The position numbers and the translations under genes were made by a program. The notes below the pieces were generated by a model that made no database searches, was not told where the DNA came from, and worked only from the letters and a program-made list of their open reading frames with translations. A stretch of DNA of 64,000 bases from an uncultured Poribacteria bacterium (GTDB lineage: Bacteria > Poribacteria > WGA-4E > WGA-3G): positions 1,600,001-1,664,000 of the forward strand of contig CATQHZ020000001.1 of assembly GCA_958296135.2 (NCBI GenBank). The letters run 5' to 3'. Of the stretch, positions 8,641 through 46,810 are shown in pieces. Numbering within the stretch: the stretch's first letter is position 1; every line of letters begins with the position of its first letter.

Positions 8641-10525
8641 TTATATCGTCTTGAGACAGCACTGCAAAGCAAGGTTCGCCGCAAGCGTATCAGTCAATGC
8701 AATATCCCGGCAGATGAACACGGAATCTTTTGATAACCGCAGGCGTTCTAAATCCGCTTCCGCCAACTTCTCGTCTAAACAGACGTGGCATCTCTGCGAA
8801 CTATCTGGCGTGGCGATGCGGAAAATGGTGTTTGCGGGCGGATATGAACGACATCCGCCCTTACCTTCTTTCTTTCTCAATTCACCGTTACCTTTTCCTA
8901 CGGGTTCAATCGTGCTATTAAGCGGGTATCCCTCCTTAAGCGCGATTTCATAAAGGACATCCTCAACGCGCCAACCTTCGCGGAGCGGATCGATGGTGTT
9001 CTCCAACTGTGCGATATACGTCTGTGCATCATCTGAGAGAATTTCGGCTGCAGTGCGATAATTAGATGCGGCAAGTTCAAAGACGCGGAAGCCTAAATCC
9101 GCGTTGAGGTTCTGACAAACGCGCCGAATTCGTTCTTTGCCAATCTCGGCGATAGTCTGAAATCCCGCCTTGCGTGCCGCCGATTTTTCCGGCGTGCGTT
9201 CCGGCAGTTGCACCATGATAAACTGCCGCCTGCCCGAATCCTCCCGATTGAGTGCCAGCACTGCCTGCGCTGTCGTGCAGGAACCGGCGAAGAAATCCAA
9301 AACAATCGAATCTCGCTCTGTGCTAAATTGGAGGAGGTGTCTAATCAACCCGACCGGTTTGGGATTCGTAAAGATACCATCTGCCTTGAGCAGTTCACGC
9401 AGTTGCGCCCTGCCGTGGCTGTTTTTCTCAACATCGGTTAGCAAACCGCGCGGGACTCTCCCGCTTGATTCATTCAGGTAGCGTTTATACTCCACGAGCC
9501 ACTTCCCTTTCTGTGTCTTTCTAAAGACGATCCGATTTTCCTTTTTCATCTGAAGGAAGCGCGATTCCTGTCGGTTCCACTCGTTGAAGACGAAAGAACC
9601 GTCCGGACATTCAATCCGATACTGCAACCCTGGAGAGGGATGATCTGGCCTTCCTCGCGTGAAGGCATCGGTTTTATAGGGCCCGCGAGATGCGTAGTGC
9701 TCGTCTTTTTGTGTGTAAGCGGCCCTCTCCTTTTCAGCGAGCGGATACCGAAACCGCCCGGTCACCGTTCGATCTTTCGCATAAGCGAGGATATATTCGT
9801 GGTTCAGCGCGAAGTGTTTGGCATCGTTACTTCCACTAGCATACCGTTGCCAGACCAGTTGTTGCAGGCAGTTTTCCTCGCCAAAAATTTCATTCATCAT
9901 GAAGCGGAGGTTGTAGCCCTCGCGGTCATCGATACTGACGAAGATGATGCCATCATCGGTGAGCAACTGCCGCGCGAGGAAGAGGCGCGGATACATCATC
10001 GACAGCCACGCCGAGTGGTAGCGGCCGCTTGTCTCTGGGTTGCTGGTTTGCAAATTGCCCTCGGTATCCAGCTGCCCGGAGAGTTGGAGATAAGTATCCA
10101 AAGGTTTCGCGTAGTTATCGGGGTAGACGAAATCGGTGCCGGTGTTGTAAGGCGGATCGATGTAGATGGCTTTGATGCGCCCGAAGTAGGGCTTGTAGAG
10201 GAGTTTCAGCACCTCCAGATTATCGCCTTCAATGAAGAGATTTGGGGTGCTGTCAAAATGCAGAGAAGCATCTCGGCGCGGCTTAAGAGTAGCCTCGGAG
10301 GGAACGCTGAGCAGGCGGAGAGCATCGCGTTTGCCTGCCCAGTTGAAGCCATACCTATTGGGTGGAGCAGCCTCGTTAGCGTTTACCCCCCCCCTCACAA
10401 TAGTATAGTATATTCTGAAGTTTCTCCGCGTCAATTCTGCCTTCGGTGAGGCATTCGGGGAAGAGTTGCTTGAGTTGGCGGAGGCGTTCCGCGTTTGGGT
10501 TGCGGGTTGTTTTGGGAGTCTTCAT
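8641..10525 (-). CDS. mod: Type III restriction-modification Mod-like adenine methyltransferase, frameshifted at a G9 tract
   Basis: IEGDNLEVLK, IYIDPPYNTG and LDFFAGSCTT motifs. The true N-terminus (MKTPK..LKQLFPECLTEGRID) starts at 10525 in another frame and stops just after the G9 run at 10386-10394. Confidence 0.85.
10386..10394 (-). repeat. Homopolymeric G9 tract (candidate phase-variation switch)
   Basis: C9 on the + strand; G8 or G11 would fuse the two mod frames. Confidence 0.75.
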
Positions 10526-22291: not shown

Positions 22292-24379
22292 ATGTCTCAA
22301 GAAACTAGCGCGGGAGCATCTGCTTCCGCCACCTCATTTTTAAAACGCACCCACTACTGTGGTGCCCTTCGCCTCACCGATGCGGGTTCCCGCGCGCAAT
22401 TCAACGGCTGGGTGCAACGCCGCCGCGACCATGGTGGTGTCATCTTCGTTGATTTGCGCGACAGAACCGGCATCACCCAAGTTGTCTTCGATCCGCAGAT
22501 TGACGAGGCGGCACACGAACGTGCTAGTGCGGTGCGCAGCGAATTTGTGCTGAACGTCAGCGGCACCGTTCGCGAACGCGAACCGGGCGAACGCCTCTTT
22601 CAGGCAGCTGTCGCGCATCAAACTGAACTTGGCGAAGGCACCGTGTCTCCTGAATTCCGAGCCATGTTCGCCGGTGTAGACACAAAATACACGTTGTCTG
22701 ACGACATTACAGTCGCTGTCCGAGAGCCCGGTGTCCGGTGGCTGCTCACTGATGTGAAAAATAACCGCACTTATGAAATCCACCTAGCGGCGGTGCGGTT
22801 GGAAACCGCGCCGCCCGAGGAGAAGAGGCCTGTCTTAAACGTCTATCAGGGCACCGTGAATCCGGAACTCGCCACGGGTGAGGTTGAGCTCGCCGTGGAT
22901 TCTCTGAACATTCTGAATACGGCGAAAACGCCGCCGTTCCTTGTGGAAGACGACGTGGAAGTCGCCGAAGACATTCGGATGCAGTATCGGTTCATCGATT
23001 TGCGCCGGCCGGAGATGCAGCAGACGCTCGCGATGCGCCACAAAGCGGCACTCGCCGCACGCAACTACATGAACGAGCACGGCTTCCTCGAAATCGAGAC
23101 ACCTATCTTGATGAACAGCACCCCGGAAGGCGCGCGCGATGTCCTCGTGCCGAGCCGGCACTATCCCGGTAAATTCTATGCGCTCCCGCAGTCACCACAG
23201 CAGTTCAAGCAGATTCTGATGATGAGCGGCGTAGACAGGTATTTTCAGATTGCGCGATGCTTCCGCGACGAAGATACTCGGGCAGACCGGCAGCTGGAAT
23301 TCACGCAGCTTGACATCGAGATGTCCTTCGCGGATGTAGACAATGTGCTGGAAGTCACTGAAGGGCTCATGAAGCGGATATTTGAAGAGGCAGGCGGCAT
23401 TCCCGTTCAAACACCGTTCCTGCGGCTGCCTTATCACGAATCGATGGCACGCTTCGGTAACGACAAGCCGGATACACGATTCGGCATGGAACTGACAGCC
23501 CTTGGTGATGTCATGGCGGCCTCCGATTTTCAGGTGTTCAAGCGTGCGCTAGCAAGCGGCGGGCAGGTGAAAGCCATCGCTGTTCCAGGCGGCGCAGATT
23601 TCTCGCGCAAGGACATTGATGAGCTGACGAAGTTCGTCGGTATCTATCGCGCAAAGGGGTTGGCATGGGTAAAGGTTACCGCTGACGGTTTTTCATCCGG
23701 CATCGTCAAGTTTTTCAAGCCGGGACAGTTGGAGATAGCGCAGGAGCGGACCGGCGCGCAACCGGGTGACATCATGTTCTTCGTCGCTGACCGGGCGAAT
23801 GTCGTCGCCGATGCACTCGGGAACCTCCGGACGCATCTCGCGCGCAAACTGGACATGATTGACGAAACCCGCTACAATTTCCTCTGGATTGTCGACTATC
23901 CGCTCTTTGAGTGGAACGCCGAAGTACATCGGTATGAGCCGTTTCACCACCTCTTCACCGGCGCGACGGATGAGACAGTCGGCTTACTTGACACCGACCC
24001 GGGGAAAGTGCAGAGCCAACACTATGATCTGGTTTGCAACGGCTACGAAATCTGTAGTGGTAGCGTCCGGATCCACCGGTGGGATATCCAACAGAAGGTT
24101 TTTGACGTTTTGAAAATCAGTCCGGCGGATGTCAAAAGTCGGTTTGGGTATTTCATCGATGCGTTAGAATACGGCACGCCGCCGCACGCCGGCATCGCCC
24201 CTGGCTTGGACAGAATTGTTATGCTGATGCGCAACGAGGAGAACATCCGGGAGGTAATTGCCTTTCCGAAATCGCAGCAGGGACTTTGCCCATTGACGCA
24301 TGCTCCCTCTGTTGTCACGGATGAACAATTGGCAGAATTGTCCATCCGCGTGGATGCCCCGGTAGGCGCGGATGCCTAA
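22292..24379 (+). CDS. aspS: Aspartate-tRNA ligase (probably non-discriminating) with an ~87-aa insertion
   Basis: RRRDHGGVIFVDLRD, LPQSPQ.FKQ, CFRDED and PPHAGIAPGLDR motifs; His in DHGG. Confidence 0.96.
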   Translation: MSQETSAGASASATSFLKRTHYCGALRLTDAGSRAQFNGWVQRRRDHGGVIFVDLRDRTGITQVVFDPQIDEAAHERASAVRSEFVLNVSGTVREREPGERLFQAAVAHQTELGEGTVSPEFRAMFAGVDTKYTLSDDITVAVREPGVRWLLTDVKNNRTYEIHLAAVRLETAPPEEKRPVLNVYQGTVNPELATGEVELAVDSLNILNTAKTPPFLVEDDVEVAEDIRMQYRFIDLRRPEMQQTLAMRHKAALAARNYMNEHGFLEIETPILMNSTPEGARDVLVPSRHYPGKFYALPQSPQQFKQILMMSGVDRYFQIARCFRDEDTRADRQLEFTQLDIEMSFADVDNVLEVTEGLMKRIFEEAGGIPVQTPFLRLPYHESMARFGNDKPDTRFGMELTALGDVMAASDFQVFKRALASGGQVKAIAVPGGADFSRKDIDELTKFVGIYRAKGLAWVKVTADGFSSGIVKFFKPGQLEIAQERTGAQPGDIMFFVADRANVVADALGNLRTHLARKLDMIDETRYNFLWIVDYPLFEWNAEVHRYEPFHHLFTGATDETVGLLDTDPGKVQSQHYDLVCNGYEICSGSVRIHRWDIQQKVFDVLKISPADVKSRFGYFIDALEYGTPPHAGIAPGLDRIVMLMRNEENIREVIAFPKSQQGLCPLTHAPSVVTDEQLAELSIRVDAPVGADA

Positions 24380-40006: not shown

Positions 40007-40756
40007 ATGACACTCAACATTATGGTATTAACCCCGGGGGCATTCCGCGACTGGGCCCTCCCTTTTGTGGCGGATTCGCTGTTTGCCTCCCGTGAGCGGA
40101 TGGTTGCCCTGCTCGCGCAAGGTGCCAATAGGGAAAAGTTGGAAGCAGAATTTCGCGAGTTTTTTGAGGAATATTGTGGGCTCGCCTTTCTATTTGAGGA
40201 GCCCGAAAAATCGCTGCTCGTTACTCTTGATGAGTGCGCGGCGTTTTCGCATCTCAACTATCGCGTGAAAAACGTTGAAGCGCAGCGGCAGACTTCGCCT
40301 GCAGGACGCATCGCACGGCGAACCGGCGGCGGGATTATCAACGATCCGTCCCCCGAAATAAAGGTGGCAGCGTTATCGGATGCCGACTTCCGCGCCTTAA
40401 TGGAAACGCTCGTGAGTTGGCCACTCTTTGCCGCGCGTAAACGGGTGGTTAAGTTGCTCGACGCGGAATCAGACCTGGGTGGGAACCCCGGGTCGCTAGC
40501 GAGCACTCAGTTTCCATCGGCTTCTGTGGAGACGCGCGGACAATCGGCGTTCCTTGAATTTTTCGTGTGCTATTTGGAACTAGAGCAGTTTCTGGAAGAT
40601 TACGATTACGACCCGGACGAAGGCTTGGAGTTGCGGCAAGAAGTCGCCGAAAGACTAGAACGTAGTGCAGCCGCGGTCGAGGCGGGAACGGCAGACCTGA
40701 TTCCGCTTGCAGAGGTCGCGAAAGAGCTCGGGATCGAACTGCAATGTACACGTTAA
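40007..40756 (+). CDS. Putative antitoxin (enlarged, internally duplicated)
   Basis: C-terminal DPDEGLELRQEVAERL..IPLAEVAKELG; overlaps relE. Confidence 0.6.
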   Translation: MTLNIMVLTPGAFRDWALPFVADSLFASRERMVALLAQGANREKLEAEFREFFEEYCGLAFLFEEPEKSLLVTLDECAAFSHLNYRVKNVEAQRQTSPAGRIARRTGGGIINDPSPEIKVAALSDADFRALMETLVSWPLFAARKRVVKLLDAESDLGGNPGSLASTQFPSASVETRGQSAFLEFFVCYLELEQFLEDYDYDPDEGLELRQEVAERLERSAAAVEAGTADLIPLAEVAKELGIELQCTR

Positions 40757-41001
40757 GGTTAGAACGCCAGGCCCGTAAGGATTTACAGCGTTTGGATGCC
40801 ACCATCCAAAGGCAAATCTTTGACAAACTGGAGTGGTTGTGCGAAAATTGCCGCAGCTACAAGCACAAGCCGTTGAAAGGGCCACTTCGCGGAAAGTATT
40901 CTTACCGAGCAGCAGGGGATTATCGTGCACTCTATAACGTCAACAAGGACACCCGAGAAATAGTTGTCTACGAGATCGGACATCGGAGTAGCATCTATTA
41001 A
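40744..41001 (+). CDS. relE: RelE/ParE-family toxin
   Basis: A.KDLQRLD..LKG..Y.YR..GDYR..Y..V.EIGHRSSIY. Confidence 0.88.
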   Translation: MYTLRLERQARKDLQRLDATIQRQIFDKLEWLCENCRSYKHKPLKGPLRGKYSYRAAGDYRALYNVNKDTREIVVYEIGHRSSIY

Positions 41002-43756: not shown

Positions 43757-44881
43757 ATGAAAGCACTCTTTAAAAGCCTCACGGTGGTGATACTCGCTGT
43801 CCTTGCGGCCGGTTTTGGCATTTGCATCTATATCCTCCAGGCACCGTCGGTTGCGCAACCGGGGCCGCCAAAACTGCAGATCCACACGCGGACAGCGTTG
43901 CGCGGCAGACCGGCGGTGAACTCCAAGCCGCTCGCCTATACGAAAGATGTCTATCGGTTTAGTTTAGCGCGGCAGCATATCAGCAACTTGAACAGCGGTG
44001 AGTTCTCGCCGAAATTACTGTTCAGCGCGGCCTTGGCGCGGCGCGCGACGTTGGAAGCCAAACGGTTGGACGCGGAATTGCGAAAGGGCATCGATTGGGA
44101 GAAAATGTTCGCCGATTTGACAGAGAACGTTCGGTTCGATGCCCGTTCGTCTGACTTAAAAGTGTTGCTCAGCGGGAAAGAGTGGCATCTCATCGACGGT
44201 TCAGGCGCGATGTATACGGTAGTCCGAGTCCAAAATCGGCTGAATGTCTATCTGCCGAATCTCAAAGAGGCATTTGAGACAAACAAAGGCCGCCTCTCGA
44301 AGAATATTGAAGTTTCTGTTGAAAAAGCCGGAAGGCAATGGCTGATCAGAGACGTAGGCTTTCAGCAGGCGTATACCGTAAAACTTGGCGGGCAAAAAGG
44401 TGATGAGAAACTGAACGTCTTCCAGCAATCGAAGGTTGAGATTCGTCACTTGCTGTTTGATGCGGATTTGCTATCGCAGCCTGCGTTGACAGATGGCCTT
44501 CTGAAGGCATCTTCGCGGCACTATATTTCGGCAGCACTACGCTCCGAGTTTGCAGAACAAAAGATCGCGCTGACCCGAAAGGCGAAGTTGTCGGTAATCA
44601 AGGAAGATAGGGAATGGCTGATAACCGATGCCGGCCAGAAATATCGTATCCGTTTGGAAGACGCACCGCAAGACGGAGGAAAAACCTCAAGGTTGAAGGT
44701 ATTCCTCGGCTTGGATAGCGAATGGCTTCGCGTGCGGGTTGATGATGAGCTGCAAGGTTGGGTGCAGCGGGAGCGCGGGACGGTTTTCCAGCCGCCGCCG
44801 CTGCCATTGAGCTCACGTCAACAGGCAAAAGCACGACTGCTAGTGCTGATTGACAGAGTGAAAGAGAAAATAGGGCAATGA
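43757..44881 (+). CDS. Membrane-anchored SH3b-like protein interrupted by three copies of an ~80-aa module
   Basis: N-terminal TM; SH3b-like pieces ALRGRPAVNSKPL / SKVEI / LG..SEWLRVRV...GWV separated by W.I.D..Y..LNV(Y/F) modules. Confidence 0.65.
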   Translation: MKALFKSLTVVILAVLAAGFGICIYILQAPSVAQPGPPKLQIHTRTALRGRPAVNSKPLAYTKDVYRFSLARQHISNLNSGEFSPKLLFSAALARRATLEAKRLDAELRKGIDWEKMFADLTENVRFDARSSDLKVLLSGKEWHLIDGSGAMYTVVRVQNRLNVYLPNLKEAFETNKGRLSKNIEVSVEKAGRQWLIRDVGFQQAYTVKLGGQKGDEKLNVFQQSKVEIRHLLFDADLLSQPALTDGLLKASSRHYISAALRSEFAEQKIALTRKAKLSVIKEDREWLITDAGQKYRIRLEDAPQDGGKTSRLKVFLGLDSEWLRVRVDDELQGWVQRERGTVFQPPPLPLSSRQQAKARLLVLIDRVKEKIGQ

Positions 44882-46080
44882 AAATCCTTTTCCTCTCGCC
44901 CACTGTGCCTTTTCCGCTGACCGATGGTGGACGGATTCGGGTGTTTCATCTGCTCAAACAGATTGCTCAGAAAAGCGAGGTAACGCTGCTGGCATTGGAG
45001 ACGCAGCCTACCGATGCAGACAACGTCCCCCAACTGGAACGTTTCGGGATTCAGGTGCATCTCGTCCGACAGGGAGGGACGTTTCCGTCTCTATCGCTCG
45101 GCACAATCCTGACAGCGTTTATCAAAAGGGTGCCTATCACGGTGGCGCGCTATAATGTGCCGGCCTATCGGCAGAAATTCAGAGAATTGGTGGCAGCCGA
45201 ACCCTTCGACCTGGTTCACTATGAAATGTGCCACGTCGCCCAATTTCACATCGAGACAGAGTTGCCAAGCCTTCTTTCGCAGCAGAACGTCGATTCTGCC
45301 ATCTGGCGGCGGCTCTGTCAAGAAACGGCGAATCCTCTCCGGAAATCCCTCTATTGGACGCAGCAACGCGCTTTTGAACGTTATGAGCGGCTGATGAGCC
45401 CGAAGTTTGACATTGTCACCTGCGCTTCCGAGATAGACAGGCAGACTTTTCAACGGACAAGCACTGAGAGCCGCTTTGAGATTATTCCAAATGGCGTGGA
45501 TATTGAGGACTACCAACCTGACTTCGGCAGCGAAGAAGAGGCACACCTCATCTACATCGGCAGCATGGATTGGTATCCAAACGAAGACGCGGTAGCCTTC
45601 TTTGCCGATGAAGTCTTACCAGAAATCCACGAGAGACTCCCAGACGTTCAATTTTCTGCTGTTGGCGGCAACCCCTCACAGCGCGTGCAGAAATTAGCGG
45701 AAAACCCGCAGCTCTTCGTCACCGGGCGCGTGCCGGAGATTAAACCGTATTTTGCGCGCGCGACTGTTTTTGTTGTGCCGTTGCGTATCGGGAGCGGCAC
45801 GCGCCTGAAAATCCTTGAAGCCTTGGCGATGGGCAAGGCTGTCGTCTCAACCACCGTCGGCGCAGAAGGGTTAGATTTGGTTGACGGTGAAGAAATCCTC
45901 ATCGCCGATGAACCGGGAGCGTTCGCTGAATCAGTCCTTCGGTTGCTCACCGATGCATCCCTCCGTCGCGAGCTCGGCGAGAGGGGCCGCGCGCGCGTGG
46001 AGCGAGATTACGATTGGCGGCGCATCGGAGAAAAGCTCCAGAGTCTTTATGAATCGGCTTACGCGGCCCGCTCCCGGTAG
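44878..46080 (+). CDS. Glycosyltransferase family 4
   Basis: PFPLTDGGRIR, IPNGVD and GSGTRLKILEALAMG motifs. Confidence 0.9.
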   Translation: MKILFLSPTVPFPLTDGGRIRVFHLLKQIAQKSEVTLLALETQPTDADNVPQLERFGIQVHLVRQGGTFPSLSLGTILTAFIKRVPITVARYNVPAYRQKFRELVAAEPFDLVHYEMCHVAQFHIETELPSLLSQQNVDSAIWRRLCQETANPLRKSLYWTQQRAFERYERLMSPKFDIVTCASEIDRQTFQRTSTESRFEIIPNGVDIEDYQPDFGSEEEAHLIYIGSMDWYPNEDAVAFFADEVLPEIHERLPDVQFSAVGGNPSQRVQKLAENPQLFVTGRVPEIKPYFARATVFVVPLRIGSGTRLKILEALAMGKAVVSTTVGAEGLDLVDGEEILIADEPGAFAESVLRLLTDASLRRELGERGRARVERDYDWRRIGEKLQSLYESAYAARSR

Positions 46081-46810
46081 GGACGGTTTAAGACAGCAAA
46101 CCTCGCCCTACGGACTAAGGGCCCCTTCTACCGTAGCGCGAGGGAAAACCTGTCCCCCGGTAGGAGAGACCTCCCGGTCTCGATGTTCGGGACCTGTCAC
46201 CCGCTATCCCTCTCGATAGACCGATGCCCGGCGCAGCACAGTGGACATCTCTGCAGCGAGGCGGCAGAGATGACAAAGTTTCGGCGTAACGGCCCGCGCC
46301 CTACGGACTAAGGGGCCCTTTTTACCGACGGGCCCTTTTCACCGTAGCGCGAGGGCCCGGCGATCGCGAATCGCCGAGGGTTCCCCTCGCGATCCTCCTC
46401 GCTAGACCGATGCATAGCGCGGCACAGGACCGCGCCCTACGGACTAAGGGGCCCTTTTTACCGACGGGCCCTTTTCACTGACGGGCCCTTTTCACCGTAG
46501 CGCGAGGGCCCGGCGATCGCGAATCGCCGAGGGTTCCCCTCGCGATCCGCCTCGCTAGACCGATGCATGGCGCGGCACAGGCCCGCGCCCTACGGACTAA
46601 GGGGCCTTTTCACCGATGCATGGCGCGGCACAGGCCCGCGCCCTACGGACTAAGGGGCCTTTTCACCGATGCATGGCGCGGCACAGGACCGCGCCCTACG
46701 GACTAAGGGGCCCTTTTTACCGATGCATGGCGCGGCACAGGCCCGCGCCCTACGGACTAAGGGGGCCTCTTCACCGTCGCGCGAGGGAAAACCTGTCCCT
46801 CGCGGGTGTC
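46077..46810. repeat. Large mosaic REP/REPIN (BIME-like) array
   Basis: About seven copies of GCCCTACGGACTAAGGGG; four tandem ~53-bp units CCGATGCATGGCGCGGCACAGG(c/a)CCGCGCCCTACGGACTAAGGGG at 46560-46775; no unique spacers. Confidence 0.85.

Follow-up and report, generated by a model that had tools for sequence, protein, structure and literature searches.

The 64-kb window analysed here (64,000 nucleotides of an uncultured Poribacteria bacterium, contig CATQHZ020000001.1, positions 1,600,001 to 1,664,000) contains an open reading frame (ORF) at positions 43757-44881 of the + strand, which raises the question of how several related stretches came to lie inside one small protein domain and, apparently, inside one another. 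The ORF encodes a protein of 374 aa followed by a stop codon. Its only Pfam match was at chance level (E-value 0.1), no SH3 domain was detected in it, and the NCBIfam scan returned zero families. Comparison of the protein with itself revealed three related stretches, the best pair of 15-mers being SVEKAGRQWLIRDVG and SVIKEDREWLITDAG. A first-pass annotation, made from the letters and translations alone, had read the product as a bacterial SH3-like (SH3b) domain interrupted by three copies of a module, one of them nested inside another, and had proposed that this module behaves like a mobile element. The boundaries of that parse (the two halves of copy A, a complete copy B, a short strand and copy C) hold within about 2 residues, and the whole ORF most probably encodes a membrane-anchored SH3b protein with three module copies.

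The nature of the host became apparent from orthologues without inserts, which the first-pass annotation had suggested looking for and which we found in five genomes (G057, G063, G068, G027 and G030). The orthologue of G057, a relative from another family, is a protein of 127 residues that shares the anchor helix, the Pro-rich linker and the C-terminal helix of our protein, and its SH3 domain has no interruption. BLAST aligned residues 9-66 of our protein to its residues 11-70 (E 8e-4) and residues 309-369 to its residues 68-127 (E 2e-12). Relative to this orthologue our protein has 242 inserted residues, which split the SH3 domain into three pieces, all colinear with the uninterrupted form, the middle strand being paired by eye only. 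The orthologues of G057, G063 and G068 score 27.5, 33.4 and 34.1 bits with the SH3_3 profile (PF08239), above its gathering cut-off of 27 bits, and the match in the first of them spans residues 50-96. The G027 orthologue, the fourth one scanned, reaches 22.9 bits, below the cut-off.

Read against these orthologues, the host parts of the ORF (all on the + strand) are as follows. A hydrophobic N-terminal anchor helix occupies residues 1-30 (43757..43846); it lines up with the corresponding helix of the insert-free protein, and the AlphaFold (AF2) model shows a helix at residues 2-27 with predicted local distance difference test (pLDDT) values of 72-82. The first SH3b segment, TRTALRGRPAVNSKPLAYTKD (residues 44-64, 43886..43948), aligns with residues ~46-70 of the 127-aa protein. 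The middle strand, QSKVEIR (residues 224-230, 44426..44446), was paired by eye with GSRLVIV in the proteins that have no insert. The last segment, beginning with GLDSEWLRVRVDDELQGWVQRE (residues 318-343, 44708..44785), lies in the stronger of the two BLAST alignments and leads into a conserved Pro-rich linker and C-terminal helix (residues 344-374, 44786..44878). The protein is thus a small bacterial SH3 protein with an N-terminal anchor and with inserts in two loops of its SH3 domain, which agrees with the host proposed at first pass.

The inserted residues were assigned to module copies with two profiles. An iterated profile, run on all stop-to-stop ORFs of the same genome (G000), converged on 13 copies in 10 ORFs. 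A second, independent hidden Markov model (HMM) was built from 79 copies of four other genomes and included no sequence from G000. Among the 38,321 stop-to-stop ORFs of the genome the top match of this HMM was our ORF, with an E-value of 3.7e-32, and at E<=1 it recovered exactly the same set of 10 ORFs. Within the protein, the C-terminal part of copy A (residues 167-223, 44255..44425) and the complete copy C (residues 231-317, 44447..44707) were found with independent E-values of 1.2e-12 and 8.9e-11, and the complete copy B (residues 86-166, 44012..44254) was the weakest with 1.1e-3. The N-terminal part of copy A (residues 65-85, 43949..44011) covers HMM positions 10-31 and aligns with the copy in the YibE/F protein of the same genome. 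By itself it is weak (3.5 bits) and not significant with the independent HMM.

The nesting of B was examined by virtual excision, in which B is removed and the joined halves of A are scored against the HMM. The C-terminal part of A scored 48.9 bits by itself, over about positions 30-81 of the HMM. With the 21 residues upstream of B added in front, the score rose to 60.5 bits over positions 12-81. When 200 control 21-mers were joined to the same part, the mean was 49.9 bits, with a standard deviation of 2.5 and a maximum of 59.7. The rejoined A also resembles the YibE/F copy, with FSP followed across the junction by (A/N)L(R/K)EAFE. The order of units is therefore the N-terminal part of A, the complete B and the C-terminal part of A, and not a series of complete units head to tail, which rules out tandem head-to-tail duplication. 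Judged from this order and from the alignments to the insert-free proteins, copy B is nested inside copy A in the first loop of the SH3 domain and copy C lies in its next hairpin, much as the first-pass annotation had it.

The arrangement is well conserved. We found 262 homologues of the protein; the best 120 of them measure 356-376 aa, are covered to 99-100% and are 53-82% identical. All of these 120, which come from many assemblies, keep the three-copy architecture, and it is therefore fixed in the family and the insertions are old. A search for shorter homologues yielded 16 proteins, and the 12 that were read are fragments of the nested form. Between distant orthologues of family f1 the module regions are 43-66% identical and the SH3 parts 61-80%. 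The more distant orthologue of G064 (L098:453-1907, a frame of 485 residues, 31% identical) has A, B and C at the same sites and a fourth complete copy inside B, which makes three levels of nesting within one SH3 domain.

A chance resemblance, an assembly artefact or an over-read simple tandem repeat could still be suspected, as the N-terminal part of A is not significant alone and copy B, the weakest, has an independent E-value of 1.1e-3. The match of the whole ORF to an HMM free of its own genome, the architecture in 120 of 120 listed orthologues and the correspondence of both SH3 halves to insert-free orthologues speak against this, and the sequence of N-part, full copy and C-part recurs in six other proteins. 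We rejected the tandem-repeat misreading and the assembly artefact on these grounds (E-value, listed orthologues and nested order), and consider an explanation of this kind scarcely credible.

The module itself is about 70-90 residues long, with the consensus LLFsv..f..dLD.G.is..LRqeFe.ngi.LS.na.vsv...gs.WlItD.....tYtvrke...LnvY. Its W, D, Y and L are near-invariant over 74 copies, and the median identity between copies is 27-29%. The AF2 model of the full-length protein, made from an alignment of 53 rows, has a mean pLDDT of 54.9; module C reaches 70-80 and the SH3 pieces stay below 50. According to DSSP, the model has in each of B, A and C a strand, then a helix or helices, and then four strands. 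Mean-field couplings calculated from 297 copies (effective number 287) connect positions 2 and 3 with positions 72 and 73, weakly (z 2.7-4.4), which hints at a pairing of the first and last strands of the module. From the model and the couplings we infer that the module is probably an autonomous folding unit whose first and last strands lie side by side.

How far the module extends was explored by profile searches, as the first-pass annotation had advised. Besides the 13 copies in G000, the profile matches all 41 of 41 relatives, and the module is present in 167 of 176 species genomes of Poribacteria, and genomes within the order have 5-33 copies each. Family f5 lacks it (0/3 genomes), and in f8 only 2/8 genomes have it. 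Among 1.84 billion representative proteins, 2126 matched at E<=1e-3; the matches numbered 540 with the limit set to E<=1e-10 and 35 with E<=1e-30. These representatives are 113 to 4293 residues long and contain up to nine matched stretches. The source names of homologues assign the organism to Candidatus Poribacteria. Outside the phylum we found one case, a coding sequence on a megaplasmid of Xenorhabdus bovienii (NZ_FO818638.1, WP_038201898.1) with two copies (26.5 and 39.4 bits); it encodes a pentapeptide-repeat protein and adjoins a gene for a type I polyketide synthase. A phage collection searched with the module gave no match, and a search with the representative P0241 among the genome contigs gave no relative.

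That the module is undescribed, as suggested at first pass, is consistent with all our comparisons. A Pfam scan of 74 single copies found no family matching more than 2 copies, NCBIfam gave no match, and among PDB sequences nothing was significant, the best hit being a stretch of 31 residues of chlorite dismutase (E 0.0089), which we took as chance. No description of the module was found in the literature searched, which comprised articles and not their supplementary files. The module thus constitutes a large family without annotation, which has undergone a great expansion in Candidatus Poribacteria.

The window holds a second host. The aspartyl-tRNA synthetase (AspRS) encoded by ORF 22292-24379 (+) has a module copy at 22589..22849 in a loop of its OB fold; this copy had been noticed at first pass and it is real. 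The other hosts in G000 to which Pfam families could be assigned are a VWA protein (two copies), DUF4861, TamB, YibE/F, a histidine kinase, a Wzy_C ligase and BamA, and a further host is a 328-residue protein without any Pfam match. Of the 68 host ORFs in four other genomes, 52 have a Pfam family. They include sigma-54, SecA, RpoB, PolyA_pol/CCA, RseP, COX15, AI-2E, UPF0182, MFS, ABC exporters, PMT_2, M23, HEAT and TPR proteins, and a RAMP protein. We also scanned 94 representatives, 44 of which have a Pfam family at E<=1e-8, 13 of these being pentapeptide-repeat proteins; S26, TssG, MotB, SSF, ComEC, PilM and a caspase-like protein are other hosts in this set. The alignments thus place the module inside loops of many unrelated hosts, essential proteins among them, and, as in our ORF, of itself. 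In SecA the insertion sites differ between G043 and G032.

One further observation concerns RpoB. The module of the G032 protein lies at a site where RpoB of G000 (C1:98375-102940, -) has ~237 unaligned residues. This stretch has no match to the module profile; the two lineages thus have different inserts of their own at one site.

Such a range of hosts might be read as the repeated recruitment, by selection, of an ordinary functional domain that provides a binding, docking or regulatory surface, its positions in loops and in itself being the viable products of rare recombination. The near-invariant W, D, Y and L would suit this, and so would the retention of the copies in the best 120 of 262 orthologues, with 43-66% identity in the module regions of distant f1 orthologues. 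In the 13 pentapeptide-repeat proteins the module forms tandem arrays at the C terminus, and the two copies of the Xenorhabdus protein are in a protein of the same type. The host Pfam lists (own genome, four other genomes and 94 representatives) contain no transposase, integrase, reverse transcriptase or homing endonuclease, hence no mobilising enzyme domain. On the other hand, the hosts are both cytoplasmic and extracytoplasmic, and the inner membrane separates AspRS, SecA, RpoB and sigma-54 from BamA, TamB, POTRA and periplasmic enzymes, which would be unusual for a domain serving one partner or ligand. We hold recruitment of this kind to be possible but doubtful, also in view of the nesting and the losses described below.

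Nesting is not confined to our ORF. The module profile gave 404 domain matches in 149 representatives, with tandem arrays in some hosts, and the six other proteins mentioned above show the order of N-terminal part, full copy and C-terminal part. In P0171, P0203 and P0232 the outer copy is split at the hairpin of strands 2 and 3 by a complete one; in P0239, a sigma-54, and in P0139, which has two inner copies, the split is just after the LS motif. Copies thus enclose other copies at three or more distinct loop positions of the module, for which a recruited function offers no obvious rationale.

Comparison of orthologues shows that different hosts acquired their copies at different times. AspRS was matched in 174 of 176 genomes. 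In f1, f2 and genus g8 the frames are 665-762 residues long, align from the N terminus and bear the insert, and in g11, g14, g16, g17 and f4 they are contiguous, 588-631 residues long, and align only from query residue ~186. In the OB fold the insert separates RER.EG(D) precisely from G..NP, motifs that follow each other without a break in G032 and G030. The G000 orthologues of the DsbH-like protein, UPF0182, SecA and COX15 are cleanly without the module, though it is carried by these proteins elsewhere. Such clean presence and absence among orthologues, to which the five genomes with an insert-free SH3b protein can be added, shows gains at different times.

The module has also been lost. We compared sigma-54 of G000 (C1:737115-738737, -) with that of other genomes; the module is present at the same site in five of the six genomes compared, namely G002 (of the same genus), G006, G037, G026 and G032. 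The G000 protein has lost it except for the vestige HLDVSDF, and a short NG/NG repeat marks the junction. A shortened, degenerate copy in which the conserved W is replaced is present in the CCA/PolyA_pol protein of G000 (C1:1335932-1337386, +). This copy had been missed by the genome-wide search, and our copy counts are therefore lower bounds. By these comparisons the module was gained by different hosts at different times, with at least one loss. A copy that is lost in one genome and kept in five others, and another that is decaying, do not sit easily with a surface recruited for its function.

Younger events are seen in other genomes, and copies also multiply within single proteins. Pairs within a protein reach 97% identity, and in P0215 (75% identical) and P0242 (88%) two non-adjacent copies are alike only within the module, to +/-1 residue. 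The median identity between copies of different proteins is 29%, with near-consensus copies in unrelated hosts reaching 70%. These figures, together with the presence or absence of the module even within one genus (sigma-54), might suggest that it forms the coding cargo of some mobile DNA element, such as a homing cassette or a repeat similar to MITEs (miniature transposable elements with inverted repeats) or Rickettsia palindromic elements (RPEs), which is now or was recently mobilised in trans and can excise. The parts of PMC10969869 that concern RPEs describe a comparable pattern: short elements inserted in frame into many unrelated genes, including essential housekeeping ones, with the added peptide being tolerated. 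The module shares with RPEs this in-frame insertion into many unrelated genes, housekeeping genes included.

The DNA of the copies tells otherwise. At columns with identical residues the 13 copies of G000 use the same codon 438 times where 416.1 are expected, so that the copies in this genome are old. In the four other genomes the observed and expected numbers are 1762/1629, 2042/1679, 953/806 and 667/671, an excess of 0-22%. The GC content of the G000 copies, overall and at third codon positions (GC3), matches that of their host genes and their codon use is native. RNA folding gave z-scores of -0.07 and -1.64. At the module ends, where the first-pass annotation had advised a look for conserved DNA, there are no terminal inverted repeats. 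A DNA profile run with nhmmer on G000 found the 13 known copies and one weak match in the TamB gene, and no intergenic or out-of-frame copies at E<0.1. Finally, the loss in sigma-54 resembles a deletion at the NG/NG microhomology that left a vestige, not a precise excision. There is no DNA-level sign of current mobility in the genome of G000, and we regard cargo of a mobile element as improbable.

Two side observations belong here. The weak TamB match (G000:C1:2876863-2877001, +, E 0.0023) lies ~60 codons upstream of the known copy in that gene and may be a second, decayed copy. ORF 43757-44881 contains two short inverted repeats, which is about the number estimated for chance, and neither is at both ends of a module. 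One of them, a 13-nt pair with 92% complementarity at window positions 44253-44265 and 44436-44448, brackets the C-terminal part of A; by a rough estimate ~0.4 such pairs are expected by chance in the ORF, so this one is probably chance too.

Against this background the known systems can be compared. RPEs are palindromic DNA repeats, about 150 bp in length, of a single genus. The module differs from them in having no DNA similarity beyond codon usage, no inverted ends, no unusual folding and no intergenic copies; what is conserved, throughout the phylum, is a fold pattern of ~75 residues of protein kept by selection. We rejected an RPE or MITE-like repeat, as nucleotide similarity beyond codon usage, palindromes and intergenic copies were all lacking in G000.

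Inteins are inserted in frame at conserved sites of essential proteins, have nested arrangements and are present or absent among orthologues. In-frame insertion, nesting and presence or absence among orthologues are common to inteins and the module. The module, however, has half the length of a mini-intein, and there is no indication that it is removed from the protein. No Hint or intein family was matched, and the alignments of 13 and 74 copies show no conserved nucleophile or His-Asn at the ends, and an intein was rejected. The statement at first pass that intein, transposase and endonuclease motifs are missing stands, with no such family matched by the module or, for the enzymes, found in the host lists.

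A further comparison is with inserted and nested domains of multidomain proteins, such as the lineage-specific inserts of the RNA polymerase beta subunit. Domain insertion is usually regarded as a rare accident. Inserted domains resemble the module in that a compact domain lies in a loop of another, sometimes nested and restricted to a lineage. The module differs from the usual cases in that one family occupies dozens of unrelated host folds in one phylum, nests in itself at several sites and is present in 5-33 copies per genome.

The reading that we favour, and consider probable though by a cautious estimate, is that of a self-folding domain cassette which was spread by copy-and-insert events and is now a fixed or tolerated passenger; copying of the cassette without a dedicated element is included in this reading. 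If so, a module that folds autonomously and has its end strands adjacent could be tolerated by a loop of the host. The coding cassette would be copied and inserted at another coding position, often in the same gene, and only insertions that are in frame and located in loops would survive selection. The copies in ORF 43757-44881 would then be old, fixed and under purifying selection, either as retained passengers or as a recruited surface, and not an active element. The mobile-like behaviour claimed at first pass can be upheld historically, given the unrelated hosts, the recurrent nesting, the presence and absence among orthologues and the duplicates confined to the module. Neither a DNA-level element nor present activity is borne out in this genome.

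Several points weigh against a passenger cassette. The numbers of identical codons equal the expected ones or exceed them only modestly, and the genomes examined show no DNA signature of copy-and-insert. The within-protein duplicates of P0197, P0129, P0124 and P0122 extend past the module, from which it follows that ordinary segmental duplication also makes copies. The conserved W, D, Y and L, the family-wide retention and the C-terminal arrays of the pentapeptide-repeat proteins fit a domain with its own function. The full-length model is poor, above all in its SH3 parts, and the coupling signal, besides being weak, comes from the ends of the alignment, where gaps can mislead. Furthermore, the presence and absence of the inserts in AspRS and in ORF 43757-44881 does not simply follow family labels. 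Among f3 genomes, G064 has the f1 architecture of the ORF and G063 and G068 are insert-free; this mixed pattern means that losses or gene transfer blur the count of gains. The insert-free proteins have no neighbour genes in common with those of the window, and their orthology is judged from sequence.

A bolder version holds that the module is a new genetic parasite or commensal living inside proteins, that is, a self-folding coding cassette with its own mechanism of copying and insertion and possibly of excision. It would have settled in loops of housekeeping and envelope proteins, and in its own, all over the phylum, and would persist by being structurally harmless. We think this unlikely.

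The surroundings of the ORF in the window may be described briefly. A gene for a group-1/family-4 glycosyltransferase follows at 44878..46080 (+), with a 4-nt overlap with the stop codon of ORF 43757-44881, and is not kept beside the orthologues in other families. Between it and a Lar_N-like gene lies an intergenic tandem repeat array (46313-46776), whose periods are 53 and 153 nt and whose units match to 95%. Elsewhere in the window, the translation of a 597-residue ORF at 8641-10434 (-) shows, as read by eye, a DPPY-type motif typical of DNA methyltransferases, and an 85-residue ORF at 40744-41001 (+) resembles, by eye only, toxins of the RelE/ParE type.

For annotation the case is a warning, as split host domains such as the SH3 domain here escape profile searches. 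The family offers natural data on the loops of essential proteins that can accommodate an insert of ~75 residues, and, for protein engineering, an insertion scaffold that is ready to use and has been tested by nature. It also makes testable the semi-selfish spread of protein-coding cassettes without recognisable DNA repeats, and for Poribacteria the module is a strong lineage marker.

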